Shown: one piece after another, positions 3,053-63,208 of the stretch
Layout of the letters: each line of letters opens with the position of its first letter
How positions within the stretch are numbered: position 1 is the first letter of the stretch
Assembly: GCA_030656215.1 (NCBI GenBank)
Contig: JAUSOD010000091.1
Span: 104,356-168,355 of the forward strand
DNA length: 64,000 nt
Direction of reading: 5' to 3'
Origin: Azoarcus sp.
GTDB taxonomy: Bacteria; Pseudomonadota; Gammaproteobacteria; Burkholderiales; Rhodocyclaceae
Notes under the pieces: model-generated
Database searches by the model: none
What the model was told of the DNA's origin: nothing
What the model saw: the letters and a program-made list of their open reading frames with translations, nothing else
Translations under genes and position numbers: made by a program

Positions 3053-3094
3053 AGGAATTGAAACGGGGCGCCAAGGCGCCCCGTTTCAATTCCT
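3053..3094. terminator. Perfect 20-bp inverted repeat, bidirectional terminator between the M23 gene and erpA
   Basis: AGGAATTGAAACGGGGCGCC-AA-GGCGCCCCGTTTCAATTCCT between convergent stops. Confidence 0.8.
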
Positions 3095-5658: not shown

Positions 5659-5721
5659 TGCGCACATGCGAAAGAATCTGAAGACCGCAAGCACGGCGAT
5701 GTGCCGGCAAGGAATTCAGGC

Positions 5722-5833
5722 AAAAAAAACGCAGTCCTTGTGGGACTGCGTTAAATCCACACCAAAGGAGGAGGGTGGAGGAGACACTGCTTGGATCACC
5801 GACTGCTTTCGCAGCACGTTTCTGATCCGACTG
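5722..5833 (-). ncRNA. Small RNA with anti-Shine-Dalgarno CUCCUCC tracts (resembles the betaproteobacterial 'toxic sRNA' family)
   Basis: Minus strand contains UGUCUCCUCCACCCUCCUCCUUUGGUGUGGAUUUAA, then the terminator AACGCAGUCC-CACAA-GGACUGCGUU and a U-run. The 5' part folds (GGAUCA/UGAUCC, CUGC-GAAA-GCAG). 5' end estimated from the promoter. Confidence 0.75.
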
Positions 5834-32336: not shown

Positions 32337-33728
32337 ATGACCCAGACCGCGCACGCCCTGCCCGCCCCCGAGATCTTCAAGGCCTACGATATCCGTGGCA
32401 TCGTCGACAAAACACTGACCGCGGATGCCGTGCGCGCAATCGGGCATGCCCTCGGCTCCGAAGCCGTGGCCCGCGGCCAGAAGACGATCGCCATCGGTCG
32501 CGACGGCCGCCTGTCCGGCCCCGAACTTGCCGGCGCACTGGCCGACGGAGTCCGCGCTGCCGGCGTCGATGTGGTCGATATCGGCTGCGTGCCCACCCCG
32601 CTGACCTACTTCGCCGCTTACCAGCTGGGCACGAACTCCTGCGTGTCGGTCACTGGCAGTCACAACCCGCCGGATTACAACGGTCTGAAAATGGTGCTGG
32701 GCGGCGAGACGCTTTACGGCGACCAGATCCTTGCGCTGCGTCAGCGCATTGCCGATAACAACCTGGCCCACGGCGCCGGCAAACTGAGCCATGCCGATGT
32801 GATCGAGGCCTACCTCGACCGCATCGTCGACGACGTGAAGCTCGCCCGCCCGATGAAGATCGTCATTGACTGCGGCAACGGCGTGGCCGGCGTGGTCGCC
32901 CCCGAACTGTTCAAGCGCCTGGGCTGCGAGCTGGTCGAGCTGTTCTGCGACGTCGACGGCAACTTCCCCAACCATCACCCCGACCCGTCCAAGCCGGAGA
33001 ACCTGGCCGACGTGATCCGTGCGCTGAAGGAAACCGATGCGGAACTCGGCCTTGCCTTCGACGGCGACGGCGACCGCCTCGGTGTGGTCACCAAGGACGG
33101 CGAGATCATCTATCCCGACCGCCAGCTGATGCTGTTTGCCGAGGACGTGCTGTCGCGCGTGCCGGGCGGCGAGATCATCTACGACGTCAAGTGCACCCGC
33201 AATCTCGCCGGCTGGATCGCGGAGCGCGGCGGCAAAGCAACGATGTGGAACACCGGCCATGCACTGGTCAAGGCCAAGCTCAGGGAGACTGGCGCGCCGC
33301 TCGCGGGCGAGATGAGCGGTCACATGTTCTTTAAGGAGCGCTGGTTTGGATTCGACGACGGCCTGTATGCCGGTGTCCGCCTGCTCGAGATCCTGTCACG
33401 CCACCCGGACGGCAACGCGGTGCTCAAGGGCCTGCCCGACGCGGTGAGTACTCCCGAGCTGAACATCAAGATGAACGAAGGCGAGCCCTTCGAACTGGTG
33501 AAGCGCCTGAAGGAAGGCGCGGCCTTCGCCGGTGCGCAGGAGATCATCACCCTGGACGGCGTACGGGTGGAATACGCCGACGGCTTCGGCCTGGCCCGTC
33601 CGTCCAATACCACGCCGGTCGTGGTGCTGCGCTTCGAAGCCGACAGCGAAGCTGCGATTGCGCGCATCCAGGCCGATTTCCGCAAGGCGATCGAGGCGGT
33701 GTGGCCGGGGATCACGCTGCCGTTCTGA
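32337..33728 (+). CDS. Phosphomannomutase/phosphoglucomutase (AlgC-like)
   Basis: FKAYDIRG, TGSHNP, DGDGDR, GEMSGH, RPSNTTP; start moved to the ATG at 32337. Confidence 0.95.
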   Translation: MTQTAHALPAPEIFKAYDIRGIVDKTLTADAVRAIGHALGSEAVARGQKTIAIGRDGRLSGPELAGALADGVRAAGVDVVDIGCVPTPLTYFAAYQLGTNSCVSVTGSHNPPDYNGLKMVLGGETLYGDQILALRQRIADNNLAHGAGKLSHADVIEAYLDRIVDDVKLARPMKIVIDCGNGVAGVVAPELFKRLGCELVELFCDVDGNFPNHHPDPSKPENLADVIRALKETDAELGLAFDGDGDRLGVVTKDGEIIYPDRQLMLFAEDVLSRVPGGEIIYDVKCTRNLAGWIAERGGKATMWNTGHALVKAKLRETGAPLAGEMSGHMFFKERWFGFDDGLYAGVRLLEILSRHPDGNAVLKGLPDAVSTPELNIKMNEGEPFELVKRLKEGAAFAGAQEIITLDGVRVEYADGFGLARPSNTTPVVVLRFEADSEAAIARIQADFRKAIEAVWPGITLPF

Positions 33729-33783
33729 GACTTGTTGTTTCGTCGTTTCAGGACGGATTCAACGGCTGCCAAACAACCAAGGA

Positions 33784-33959
33784 TTCGGGGGGTTCCTGCG
33801 CGGGGCTGTCGAGAGCGCCGGCGCGGGAGGTGCTGCGGCGGAAACAAGGCGGCGCATGTTTGAGCCCGCAGGGCGAGTTTGCGCCGACGCCGCCGCAGTG
33901 CCTCCCGCGACGGGAAGCCGCAGGCCGCGAACGTCTGCCCCGCGCAGGAAGCCCCCGAA
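33784..33959. repeat. Long nested-palindrome intergenic element, copy 1
   Basis: 23-bp outer stem (33784-33806/33937-33959), 18-bp inner stem with G-T pairs, core GCATGTTTGAGCCCGCAGGGCGAGTTTGC; loops shared with the 60022-60211 element. Confidence 0.85.
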
Positions 33960-34071
33960 GCCGACCACGGAGTGCCGCCTTTCCCGACCGGCGCTCAACC
34001 GCCCCAATAACGCAAAAACCGGCTCCGCAAGGCAACCCCCGCAAAGCCGGCATGCAACTCCAACCCAGCCC

Positions 34072-59065: not shown

Positions 59066-60001
59066 ATGGACCTCCTCACCGACATCATCCTGCGCGCAGG
59101 TCGCTCTGCGGTGGAGCTTTCACTCTTCGTTCTGCTGCCGATCATGGTGGTGATGCTGTCGCTGATGCGCCTGCTCGAAGCACGCGGCGTGCTCGACTGG
59201 CTGGTGATCCGCCTCGCCCCGGTGCTGCGTCCGGCGGGTCTGACCGGGCTGGGGATTTTCGCCGCGCTGCAGATCAACTTCGTCAGTTTTGCCGCGCCGG
59301 TGGCGACCCTGACCATGATGGAGAGCCGCGGCGCCTCCGACCGTCACCTCGCCGCCACCCTGGCCATGGTAATGGCGATGGCACAGGCCAATGTCACTTT
59401 CCCGATGGCCGCGATGGGCCTGGCCTTCGGCCCCACCTTGGTGCTGTCCCTGATCGGCGGGCTAACGGCCGCCGCCGCCACCTATCATCTTTTCGGCCGC
59501 AGTCTGTCGGCGCTGGAGTCGACGGTGGACGAGACCCTGCACCATCGCGTGGCCGAGGACGCCAAGGGAGTGCTGGACGTGATCAACCGCGCGGGTGCCG
59601 AGGCGTTCAAGATCGCGGTAGGTGCCATTCCGATGCTGGTGCTAGCCCTGGTAGCGGTGATGGTATTGCGCCTGACCGGCGCCATCGACCTGCTCACCGC
59701 CGCACTCGCCCCCGCGCTGCTCGCCGTCGGCCTCGACCCCAACCTGATCCTGCCGACCCTGACCAAGTACATCGCCGGCGGCACCGCCTACATGGGGGTG
59801 ATGGACGAGATGCTGAAAAACGGCACCGCCACAGTCGAGACACTTAACAGCAGTGCCGGATTCCTGATCCATCCGCTCGACGTGGCCGGCGTCGCGGTAC
59901 TGATCTCGGCCGGACGGCGCGTGGCCAGGGTATGGAAACCGGCCGCACTTGGCGCGGTCGTCGGCATCACGATCCGAACCCTCGGCCACGGTTTTCTTTG
60001 A
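59066..60001 (+). CDS. Nucleoside-recognition (gate) domain membrane protein, SpmA/SpmB-like
   Basis: Hydrophobic; two gate-like repeats (LMRLLEARGVLDWL...LAP; LRLTGAIDLL...LAP). Confidence 0.75.
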   Translation: MDLLTDIILRAGRSAVELSLFVLLPIMVVMLSLMRLLEARGVLDWLVIRLAPVLRPAGLTGLGIFAALQINFVSFAAPVATLTMMESRGASDRHLAATLAMVMAMAQANVTFPMAAMGLAFGPTLVLSLIGGLTAAAATYHLFGRSLSALESTVDETLHHRVAEDAKGVLDVINRAGAEAFKIAVGAIPMLVLALVAVMVLRLTGAIDLLTAALAPALLAVGLDPNLILPTLTKYIAGGTAYMGVMDEMLKNGTATVETLNSSAGFLIHPLDVAGVAVLISAGRRVARVWKPAALGAVVGITIRTLGHGFL

Positions 60002-60021: not shown

Positions 60022-60211
60022 GGGTGGGGCGTGGAGGGGTTGGGTGGGCTGTCAGGAGCGCCGTTGCGAAATGTACCGATGGGGAAACAAGGCGATGCAT
60101 GTCTGAGGGAGCGCAGCGACCGAGTTTGCATCGCCGCCCCAGCGGTACATTTCGCAACGGGAAGCCGAAGGCCGCGAGTGTCTGCCCGCCCAGCACCTCC
60201 ACGCCCCACCC
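60022..60211. repeat. Long nested-palindrome intergenic element, copy 2
   Basis: 28-bp outer stem (60022-60049/60184-60211), 24-bp inner stem (60061-60084/60137-60160); loops shared with copy 1. Confidence 0.85.
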
Positions 60212-60302: not shown

Positions 60303-60662
60303 ATGCTCCAAGCCCTGACCATCCTGCTCGTCTATCAACTCGTCGGCGAAGTGGCTGCCCGTGCGCTCGGCCTGCCCGTACCCGGCCCAGTCATCGGCAT
60401 GGCATTGCTCTTCCTCACCCTGATGCTGCGCGGCGGGCCGACCGAATCCCTGCGCCACACCGCCGGCACCCTGCTCCAGCATCTGTCGCTGCTGTTCGTG
60501 CCCGCCGGCACCGGCATCGTGCTGTACGGCACCCGGTTGGCCGACGAGTGGCTACCGCTAACGGCCGCACTGATCGGCAGCACCTTCCTGACCATTGCCG
60601 TCACCGCCCTTCTGCTCAAGGCCCTGGGCCGACGCAGCCGGCATCCGGAGACGCCACAATGA
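60303..60662 (+). CDS. CidA/LrgA family membrane protein
   Basis: LPVPGPVIGM, LSLLFVPAGTG. Confidence 0.92.
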   Translation: MLQALTILLVYQLVGEVAARALGLPVPGPVIGMALLFLTLMLRGGPTESLRHTAGTLLQHLSLLFVPAGTGIVLYGTRLADEWLPLTAALIGSTFLTIAVTALLLKALGRRSRHPETPQ

Positions 60663-63112: not shown

Positions 63113-63208
63113 GCCCGATGTGTGGGGTGTTTGCGCAGTGGGCGAGGACTGTCCGAGCCCGCAGGGCGAGTTCCGCAGCCCACGGAGCAAATGCCCCACA
63201 CATCGGGC
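63113..63208. repeat. Shorter hairpin element related to copies 1 and 2 (copy 3)
   Basis: 22-bp stem GCCCGATGTGTGGGGTGTTTGC/GCAAATGCCCCACACATCGGGC; core GAGCCCGCAGGGCGAGTT identical (18 nt) to copy 1. Confidence 0.8.

Follow-up and report, generated by a model that had tools for sequence, protein, structure and literature searches.

This report concerns a family of long intergenic hairpins, two of which lie in a 64,000-nucleotide (nt) stretch of the genome of Azoarcus sp. (assembly GCA_030656215.1, contig JAUSOD010000091.1, forward-strand positions 104,356 to 168,355), hereafter called the window. The first hairpin (copy 1) stands between the stop of a phosphoglucomutase/phosphomannomutase (PGM/PMM) gene at 33728 (+) and the terminator of alaS at 34018-34051 (-). 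The second (copy 2) follows a Gate-domain membrane-protein gene that ends at 60001 and precedes lrgA, which starts at 60303 and is followed by lrgB, all on the (+) strand. No terminator separates either copy from its upstream gene, no sigma-70 or sigma-54 promoter was found by eye or by scan inside or beside either one, and neither has on its 3' side the T-run that marks an intrinsic terminator. Coordinates without a contig number are positions in the window; C-numbers denote contigs and G-numbers genomes, the genome studied here being G000 (5.08 Mb in 113 contigs). Two covariance models were used, R1 for the long form of the element and R2 as a broader model. The features of the two hairpins, and of a shorter relative, are as follows.

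33781-33962, +: long-form copy 1, whole hairpin, with arms 33781-33811 / 33932-33962, from inverted-repeat extension, the fold and the models
33784-33802, +: variable outer stem P1 of copy 1, 5' arm, pairing with 33941-33959 in the fold
33803-33819, +: conserved basal 5' segment of copy 1, GGGCTGTCGAGAGCGCC, in an irregular helix against 33926-33940 with U·U mismatches and a 3x3 purine loop
33820-33841, +: variable stem P2 of copy 1, 5' arm, pairing with 33890-33909
33840-33851, +: conserved GGAAACAAGGCG of copy 1, comprising the top of P2, the 6-nt AAACAA bulge and the start of P3
33852-33885, +: P3 and apical module of copy 1, GCGCA-TGTTTGAG-[CCC GCA GGG]-CGAGTT-TGCGCC
33911-33940, +: conserved 3' segment of copy 1, CGGGAAGCCGCAGGCCGCGAACGTCTGCCC, comprising the three-way junction, the mini-hairpin GCC-GCA-GGC (33917-33925) and the basal 3' strand
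60022-60211, +: long-form copy 2, whole hairpin, from the fold, inverted arms and models
60046-60062, +: conserved basal 5' segment of copy 2, GGGCTGTCAGGAGCGCC
60063-60084, +: variable stem P2 of copy 2, 5' arm, pairing with 60137-60158 (24 nt, 96% complementary)
60083-60132, +: GGAAACAAGGCG, P3 (GATGCA/TGCATC) and apical module of copy 2, TGTCTGAG-[GGAGCGCAGCGACC]-CGAGTT
60158-60187, +: conserved 3' segment of copy 2, with the mini-hairpin GCC-GAA-GGC (60164-60172)
63113-63208, +: short-form relative of ~96 nt (R2 20.3 bits; fold z = -7.8)

Copy 1 folds at -130.3 kcal/mol (z = -8.0) and copy 2 at -134.3 kcal/mol (z = -11.2), and none of the 200 dinucleotide shuffles made of each folds as well. 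The models score copy 1 at 152.6 bits (R1) and 141.5 bits (R2, at 33799-33944), and copy 2 at 179.7 and 166.7 bits, respectively. Exact matches to GGAAACAAGGCG and CGGGAAGCCGNAGGCCGCGA occur nowhere else in the window.

The architecture of the family is fixed: its unpaired motifs are near-invariant, and its stems are free in sequence but pair. Outermost is P1, a stem of 16-50 bp that varies in both sequence and length. Inside it lies a conserved irregular basal helix, in which GGGCUGUCGAGAGCGCC faces GCCGCGAACGUCUGCCC and the pairing is interrupted by a 3x3 purine loop and two U·U oppositions, followed by a three-way junction whose third arm is the mini-hairpin GCC-GNA-GGC, with a GAA linker leading in. 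P2, a second variable stem of ~21 bp, is set apart from P3 by the 6-nt AAACAA bulge within GGAAACAAGGCG, and P3 itself has 9 bp and two main versions, GGCGCA or GATGCA. At the tip, the apical internal loop UGUCUGAG / CGAGUU encloses a small, variable hairpin, the tip of which is usually a C-GNA-G triloop; P3 together with this apical module is the most widely kept part of the superfamily. Between fixed points the core measures a constant 166 nt in complete copies, and 162 nt in copy 1. Averaged over 16 non-orthologous loci, identity is 39% in P1 and 45% in P2, as against 94-97% in the conserved segments (96% in the basal 5' segment, 94% in the 3' segment). Read by eye against the respective consensus sequences, the motifs fit neither a Hammerhead, a K-turn, an attC box nor a dif-like site.

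The stems, free as they are in sequence, hold their pairing. Across seven copies from G000 (63 pairs), 97.3% of cells pair, and both sides have changed in 34 of the pairs (in P2, 17 of 23). None of 500 column shuffles reached the observed pairing, and controls in which the 3' partner was slid by 1-3 columns paired at 36-48%. RNAalifold, run on 37 diverse copies from about ten genera, predicted 49 pairs, 38 of them with compensatory changes. The same pattern can be followed base by base in the innermost stem, where GGCGGCGCA/TGCGCCG in some copies stands against GGCGATGCA/TGCATCGCC in others: pair 62-98 is GC in four and AU in three, and pair 63-97 is CG in four and UA in three.

The pairing is not symmetrical between the two DNA strands. 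The stems of 50 distinct copies hold 144 G·U oppositions on the strand that carries the motifs versus 29 A·C (78 versus 6 in P2), and the sense strand is more stable than its complement in 49 of 49 copies under RNA parameters and in 48 of 49 under DNA parameters. Judged from the direction of the GC skew, replication-linked mutation bias of a C-rich strand would favor A·C rather than G·U. The G·U excess therefore points either to selection on the fold of this strand or to a local excess of C-to-T changes, as on a transcribed non-template strand.

G000 holds eight long-form copies, six of them intact, one split over contig ends (C69/C85) and one interrupted (C76/C80). The element breaks short-read assemblies; of the eight copies, three touch a contig end or sit within 50 nt of one. 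The interrupted copy is split at GGAAACAAGG (GAAACAAGG) by a 1415-bp insertion sequence (IS) of the IS256 family, the only IS that touches a copy. It encodes a 398-aa Transposase_mut protein, makes an 8-9-bp target duplication and is present in ~10 copies, and its ends break many G000 contigs:

G000 C74:15729-17143: IS256-family element, full copy, with ends also at C76:1-139 and C80:51946-52085

Targeting of the hairpin by this IS was considered and rejected; as its ~10 copies sit at unrelated sites, we regard its insertion in the hairpin as a coincidence.

Beyond G000, each of the six genomes searched in the genus Parazoarcus/Azoarcus holds 4-9 copies, and true copies occur in Parazoarcus communis, Azoarcus spp., four species of Aromatoleum, Thauera spp., and a further Rhodocyclaceae isolate. 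A scan of contigs for 19-mers gave mostly chance matches in unrelated high-GC phyla, and only the Rhodocyclaceae loci passed the covariance model. In a family-level survey (151 sampled genomes from 89 genera), the element was present in 13 genomes from 10 genera, mostly in 1-2 copies. An order-level survey with R2 (151 genomes of the GTDB order that holds Rhodocyclaceae) found diverged homologous copies in 20 genomes belonging to at least 14 GTDB families; some of these genomes carry up to 11 copies, and some have alternately oriented clusters. The motifs that recur in these order-wide homologues are GGGGAA-AAGGC, AUGUCUGAGC-hairpin-GCGAGUUUGC, GCCGCCC and GGGAAcCCGAAGGg.

Short-form relatives extend the family further. 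The one in the window (63113-63208) consists of an outer stem, GTGGGC, GAGGA-CTGTCCGAG-[CCC GCA GGG]-CGAGTTCC-GCA, GCCCAC and the outer stem again; it has the apical module CTGTCCGAG-CCCGCAGGG-CGAGTT of the long form and lacks both the three-way junction and the AAACAA bulge. G000 has about 20 such copies of ~100 nt each, which have only the apical module in common with the long form. The eight long-form copies of this genome are singletons, and many of the short forms are inverted doublets spaced 140-250 nt apart, one of which (C100:79743/79882) is duplicated at C61:44915/45056. Two further arrangements were seen elsewhere. Five diverged copies at L228 (G240:C171:17721-20865), a locus from another family of the order, alternate in orientation within 1.7 kb; they are interleaved with a small open reading frame (MSSLAKAVSFESDMMWVDLADGRKLGVPLAYFPKLL...), which we take to be DUF2442-like, and with accessory hairpins, one of them with a GCGAAGC loop. 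This arrangement is a BIME-like mosaic (bacterial interspersed mosaic element) or a cassette-like array. At L016 (G033:C9), two tandem copies lie within a 344-nt tandem duplication inside ~1.8 kb of non-coding DNA, and a (GTTGCA)n microsatellite stands directly 5' of each (1440-1500 and 1790-1845).

The literature search returned nothing on the element, the plasmid and phage collections gave no match to it, and a search of the window against Rfam 15 at the gathering threshold found nothing on the hairpins. In E-value mode, the window copies and distant homologues drew only spurious generic microRNA (miRNA)-precursor hairpins far below threshold. The two hairpins are long-form members of an undescribed superfamily of palindromic intergenic repeats across Betaproteobacteria. 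With a covariance model of the family, this order-wide element, absent from Rfam, could be annotated. The single Rfam match in the window lies at 5721-5786 (-) and belongs to Betaproteobacteria_toxic_sRNA (RF02278; 63.8 bits against a gathering score of 50), a family of C/U-rich small RNAs related to B. pertussis S17 and B. cenocepacia bdhR1 (PMC11722255). Separately, a perfect 20-bp palindrome with a 2-nt center, AGGAATTGAAACGGGGCGCC / GGCGCCCCGTTTCAATTCCT, is found at 3053-3094.

A first-pass annotation, made from the letters of the window, had anticipated much of this. It placed the two copies where we find them, saw five conserved linkers common to both in the same order, and read the long stems as different in sequence but still pairing with G-T wobbles, which prove to be strand-specific. 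Its proposals that the innermost stem has changed in a compensatory manner and that the constraint acts on the fold of a single strand are borne out by the covariation, by the G·U excess and by the better folding of the sense strand. The further copies and the significant covariation that it had named as checks were found, and its reserve in naming no described family was well placed. Its count of three copies is to be amended: the window has two long-form members, and the third is a shorter relative with the apical module alone.

Comparison among related species shows that the element is long-lived. Six orthologous loci, defined by tblastx of the flanks, are shared among species of the genus, and the locus of copy 1 is orthologous in five of them with the same orientation. 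Between orthologues, 1-2 of 89 conserved sites differ versus 18-26 of 60 stem sites, which indicates that the motifs are under purifying selection in place. Most of the stem pairs that changed did so on both sides and still pair, and the flanking genes are 78-82% identical; set against this divergence, the stems evolve at a roughly neutral speed with their complementarity kept. Once inserted, the element persists through whole species radiations. One of these orthologous groups (group A; G000 C106:67729-67880 and orthologues) lies ~34 kb from dnaA, and just 3' of it we observed a highly conserved promoter-like stretch, TTGACA...TAATTT, with the leader ...AGCGCCGATTTGATCCATAGCTTGCGGGCGCTTAATAAATACGGCTAAAGCGAGGGCAACCC.

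The element is also copied now and then to new intergenic sites, without a terminal-inverted-repeat signature or a visible target duplication. The site of copy 2 is empty in all five sister species, where the spacer measures 44-90 nt versus ~300 nt in G000. The site of the C13 copy is empty in G005, which has 16 nt between the genes for a P-type ATPase and a MerR-like protein, and that of the C56 copy is empty in three species. No target duplication was seen at these three filled/empty pairs, the junction spacers of which have diverged. Copies at two different loci, G000_C13 and G005_C77, are ~83% identical over 227-260 nt, including a 45-bp outer stem and a GGTAA bulge. Since this similarity spans the outer stem and stops at the foot of the hairpin, the whole hairpin is the moving unit. 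At one locus in G002 and G003, a 29-nt remnant of an older, oppositely oriented copy lies beside a newer one.

In addition, recombination between the two arms of a copy can turn the element around where it sits. Four orthologous loci each include one species in which the copy is reversed with respect to the genes on either side, which are the same. When the central 140-220 nt were inverted at three of these loci, the alignment scores improved (266 to 370, 104 to 193 and 72 to 126). The score levels off as long as the break points fall within the palindromic arms of P1 and drops when the inverted segment takes in flanking DNA, as expected from recombination between hairpin arms. The fourth case is the locus with a remnant and a newer copy in G002 and G003.

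Orientation is tied to replication within this genus. All eight loci of G000 (10 fragments) have the folding strand on the C-rich strand, with skews of -0.025 to -0.08 over 10-300 kb; contig skews in this genome are bimodal and follow replication, with no correlation to gene-strand bias (r = -0.04). Sister genomes have the folding strand C-rich in 16 of 20 copies, and the remaining four are precisely those that are flipped or in the minority. In three genomes, the place of dnaA confirmed the usual polarity, in which the G-rich strand is the leading strand. Because the folding strand is the C-rich one and this polarity was checked against dnaA, it corresponds to the leading-strand template, that is, to the sequence of the nascent lagging strand, in 24 of 28 copies across the genus (about 85%). 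The polarity holds at convergent and divergent gene loci as well. Aromatoleum and Thauera loci, for which the flanks are shorter, show the same trend (~20 with negative skew versus 7 with positive or weak skew); as the pattern is mixed elsewhere, we claim polarity for this genus alone, with a trend in those two.

Our best explanation, in which we place an even measure of confidence, is that the hairpins belong to a long-lived, occasionally mobile palindromic repeat, REP/BIME-like in lifestyle though not in sequence (REP, repetitive extragenic palindrome), of which one folded strand is read by a trans-acting factor. The anatomy speaks for a specific partner that recognizes one strand in its folded form. 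The near-invariant motifs (the basal irregular helix, the GNA-triloop three-way junction, the AAACAA bulge and the UGUCUGAG/CGAGUU loop) would form the recognition surface of this factor, and the long stems would serve as spacers that need only to pair, drifting almost neutrally while selection on the fold keeps them complementary. Arm-to-arm correction, of the kind behind the flips, probably helps the stems to drift while paired. As to the form in which the strand would fold, we lean slightly toward single-stranded DNA met at the replication fork, because polarity is seen in the genus, promoters are lacking, the duplex is nearly perfect and the loops are predominantly C-GNA-G triloops, a motif known for very stable DNA mini-hairpins. 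A co-transcribed RNA (in 3' untranslated regions [UTRs] or between cistrons) would be almost as likely: the element tends to be oriented like the genes around it, some lineages have a U-tract and one copy a GNRA loop, and the architecture combines a junction with an A-rich bulge. The protein that mobilizes or binds the element is probably not a RAYT (REP-associated tyrosine transposase).

A more specific proposal is tentative, and we think it rather unlikely to hold as a whole. Under it, the conserved core (the three-way junction with its GNA triloop, the A-rich bulge and the UGUCUGAG/CGAGUU loop) would be where a protein acting on folded single-stranded nucleic acid binds and processes the element. 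The Betaproteobacteria would then have a class of hairpin elements of their own, retained by the host and polar with respect to replication, that is neither REP/RAYT nor IS200/IS605 nor attC/IntI. Conversion from arm to arm would maintain the complementarity of the stems, and selection on orientation would place the active strand on the leading-strand template.

Several observations weigh against an occasionally mobile repeat read by a trans-acting factor. No mobilizing enzyme was identified, no excision or insertion intermediates were seen, and the filled/empty junctions are too diverged to give exact ends, to reveal a target sequence or to exclude a short duplication. The conservation of motifs in place at old orthologous copies argues for a host-level function over selfish spread. 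Copy number is 1-11 (~28 with the short forms), in contrast to the hundreds typical of REP and REPIN families (REPINs being paired REP sequences). In some lineages (G033/G186/G240) a U-tract follows the hairpin, and where the neighboring genes are in tandem the element shares their orientation at 9-10 loci versus 2, both of which fit a role as RNA. Part of the G·U excess could stem from C-to-T changes favored on a transcribed non-template strand, and not from selection. Finally, outside this genus and the trend in Aromatoleum and Thauera the polarity is absent or mixed, both in further genera of the family and in further families of the order, and where present its sign (leading-strand template) is opposite to that of IS200/IS605 elements. 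This opposite sign makes it possible to test here the long-standing question of whether such hairpins act as DNA at the fork or as RNA.

The strongest alternative, possible though on the whole somewhat unlikely, is a structured noncoding RNA family that is transcribed in sense mostly by read-through, in 3' UTRs or between cistrons, and acts in cis (as an mRNA stabilizer, processing site or insulator) or through a conserved RNA-binding protein, with mobility rare and secondary. The strong covariation, the three-way junction, the A-rich bulge and a possible tandem G·A in the apical loop would suit such an RNA, as would G·U wobbles confined to one strand and motifs that orthologous copies have retained throughout the divergence of the species. 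Also in its favor are the match with gene orientation in tandem contexts and the lack of a terminator between either window copy and its upstream gene; in addition, the U-tract lineages have the hairpin followed by CGCCUUCUUUUGG, which is terminator-like, and one copy (G155b) has a GAAA tetraloop. However, no conserved promoter accompanies the element, some copies lie in convergent intergenic regions or have promoters diverging on either side, and flipped orthologous copies have been retained. Only 13% of genomes carry the element, a patchy distribution with 0-11 copies each, copies are gained at empty sites, and one overlaps a gene end. The long near-perfect duplexes would be RNase III substrates, the hairpin loops are almost all C-GNA-G triloops rather than GNRA or UNCG tetraloops, and the replication polarity has no obvious RNA rationale.

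A second alternative, which we consider improbable, is a host element acting at the DNA level and tied to replication or chromosome handling, in which the hairpin or cruciform with its asymmetric motifs is a polar site on the leading-strand template or the nascent lagging strand (for fork pausing, restart or priming, or as a topological barrier). Selection on its orientation would account for the polarity. The orientation bias with respect to replication is seen in convergent, divergent and tandem contexts and is independent of gene-strand bias, the flipped copies are single-species exceptions, and one orthologous copy lies ~34 kb from dnaA in three genomes. The dominance of DNA-type GNA triloops and the conservation of motifs in place are consistent with such a site. 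Against it, other families of the order do not show the bias, the copies are for the rest scattered in position, and no candidate protein is at hand. Moreover, as most genomes of the family lack the element, it cannot be essential.

The first-pass annotation had proposed, with a structured RNA family as the other option, an element like a REPIN or a miniature inverted-repeat transposable element (MITE), non-autonomous and mobilized in trans by a RAYT/IS200-type HUH Y1 enzyme encoded elsewhere in the genome. We now regard this as very improbable. One-strand hairpin repeats that lack a terminal-inverted-repeat signature and a visible target duplication would fit single-strand transposition by such an enzyme, orientation is tied to replication, one short-form inverted doublet is duplicated as a unit in the manner of REPINs, and G000 has three Y1_Tnp genes. 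However, no element copy lies near any of the three. Two of these genes are RAYT-like (C51:31709-32035, L164; C40:11761-12087, L163); around the C51 gene stand several copies of another REP, GAATAGGGGACAGACCACGGTTTC, with which it forms a probable REPtron. Across the family, Y1_Tnp is found in 84 of 151 genomes, namely in 9 of the 13 that bear the element and in 75 of the 138 that do not; the four carriers without a match are G051, G077, G084 and G133, three of which are complete genomes. The hairpin feet were examined for GT[AG]G or CGTC and have neither, the sole CGTC being part of the conserved basal helix (GCGAACGTCTGCCC). What is conserved and what varies is exchanged relative to a REP, and in IS200/IS605 the strand placement is opposite to the leading-strand template found here for the folding strand (PMC6006769). 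What survives of the annotation's proposal is, in part, mobility: empty sites exist in sister species for three copies and the whole hairpin recurs elsewhere, but there is no REP foot and no target duplication was seen at the diverged junctions. Simple decay of a MITE would also not lead one to expect that the majority of copies are old, orthologous and still intact in their motifs.

Separate from the element, G000 holds a GTAG-footed REP family (TTTTGTAGGGCCGACTTCAGTCGGCC...) on C32 and C70, where it flanks the IS256-family element and occurs together with another hairpin, GCCCGCATCACCCC..GGCGGGTTGAAACCCGCC. GTAG-1 REPs are on record for Thauera (PMC3733652).

Chance palindromes or ordinary terminators have next to no probability: GC-rich genomes do hold many hairpins and the nearest Rfam matches are generic miRNA-precursor models, but the pairing against 500 shuffles, covariance-model scores of 140-186 bits, the compensation found by RNAalifold and homologues in at least 14 GTDB families refute this reading, five motifs keep a fixed order and spacing around a constant core, and the window copies have no T-run.

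It is useful to compare the long-lived, occasionally mobile repeat with known systems. The 6S RNA and the 4.5S RNA of the signal recognition particle (SRP) resemble it in their rod-like fold, conserved internal loops and covarying stems. These RNAs are universal single-copy genes with a promoter and a terminator, whereas the present family is patchy, multi-copy and prone to flipping, and has no Rfam match. Single-strand origins of the ssoA type, on rolling-circle plasmids, are folded single-stranded DNAs of ~150-250 nt with conserved unpaired motifs and variable stems. They are thus alike in keeping unpaired motifs while stems vary and in having a strand- and orientation-specific function; they differ in lying on the plasmid strand to be primed, whereas this family is chromosomal, multi-copy and on the leading-strand template, with no match in the plasmid collection.

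Integron attC sites put structure over sequence, and only one folded strand, marked by asymmetric unpaired bases, is functional; in sedentary chromosomal integrons, the recombinogenic strand is reported to lie on the leading-strand template. The family shares with them a conserved structure with free sequence, one functional folded strand and its placement on the leading-strand template. Unlike attC sites, which form cassette arrays of one orientation, its copies are dispersed singly between housekeeping genes; its motifs are much longer, the attC boxes (RYYYAAC...GTTRRRY) are absent from the element consensus, and no adjacent intI was seen, although none was looked for.

Nor does the family match a classical MITE, which has conserved terminal inverted repeats like those of an IS and a target-site duplication of fixed length, given that the outermost arms differ between copies and that no target duplication was seen at the three filled/empty pairs. 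Elements of the IS200/IS605 group, and the palindrome-associated transposable elements (PATEs) that are their non-autonomous derivatives, transpose as single strands at the fork and are like the family in their one-strand hairpins and replication-tied orientation; they also make no target duplication, and none was seen at the diverged junctions here. IS200/IS605 elements have two different subterminal hairpins, at the left and right ends (LE and RE), and insert 3' of a fixed tetra- or pentanucleotide, in contrast to the single long hairpin here. Their active strand lies on the lagging-strand template (PMC6006769), whereas the folding strand here lies on the leading-strand template and has no linked cognate TnpA.

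In lifestyle, the family resembles the REP, BIME and REPIN sequences of Enterobacteria, Pseudomonas and Stenotrophomonas. These too are intergenic palindromes that occur as singletons, inverted doublets and alternating mosaic clusters, the latter two seen here in the short form and in other lineages. Both show long, mostly vertical persistence at orthologous sites, no terminal-inverted-repeat transposase signature and a constraint on one strand. REPs and REPINs are defined by a short palindrome with a conserved stem, a GT[AG]G foot and a REPtron (PMC6006769, PMC3733652). The present family has no REPtron and does not co-occur with Y1 genes, and its units of 100-260 nt (a 166-nt core plus a 16-50-bp outer stem) compare with the 20-40 nt of a REP. 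Above all, the stems are what is conserved in a REP, whereas here the unpaired motifs are conserved (94-97%) and the stems are free (39-45%). In the usual bacterial intergenic repeats, a conserved palindrome defines the family; in this one the rule is inverted, with ~90 unpaired or irregular nt near-invariant across genera and two stems of 20-50 bp that take almost any sequence that pairs. As orthologous, paralogous and flipped copies can all be compared, the family offers a clean natural case for the study of compensatory evolution or arm-to-arm conversion.

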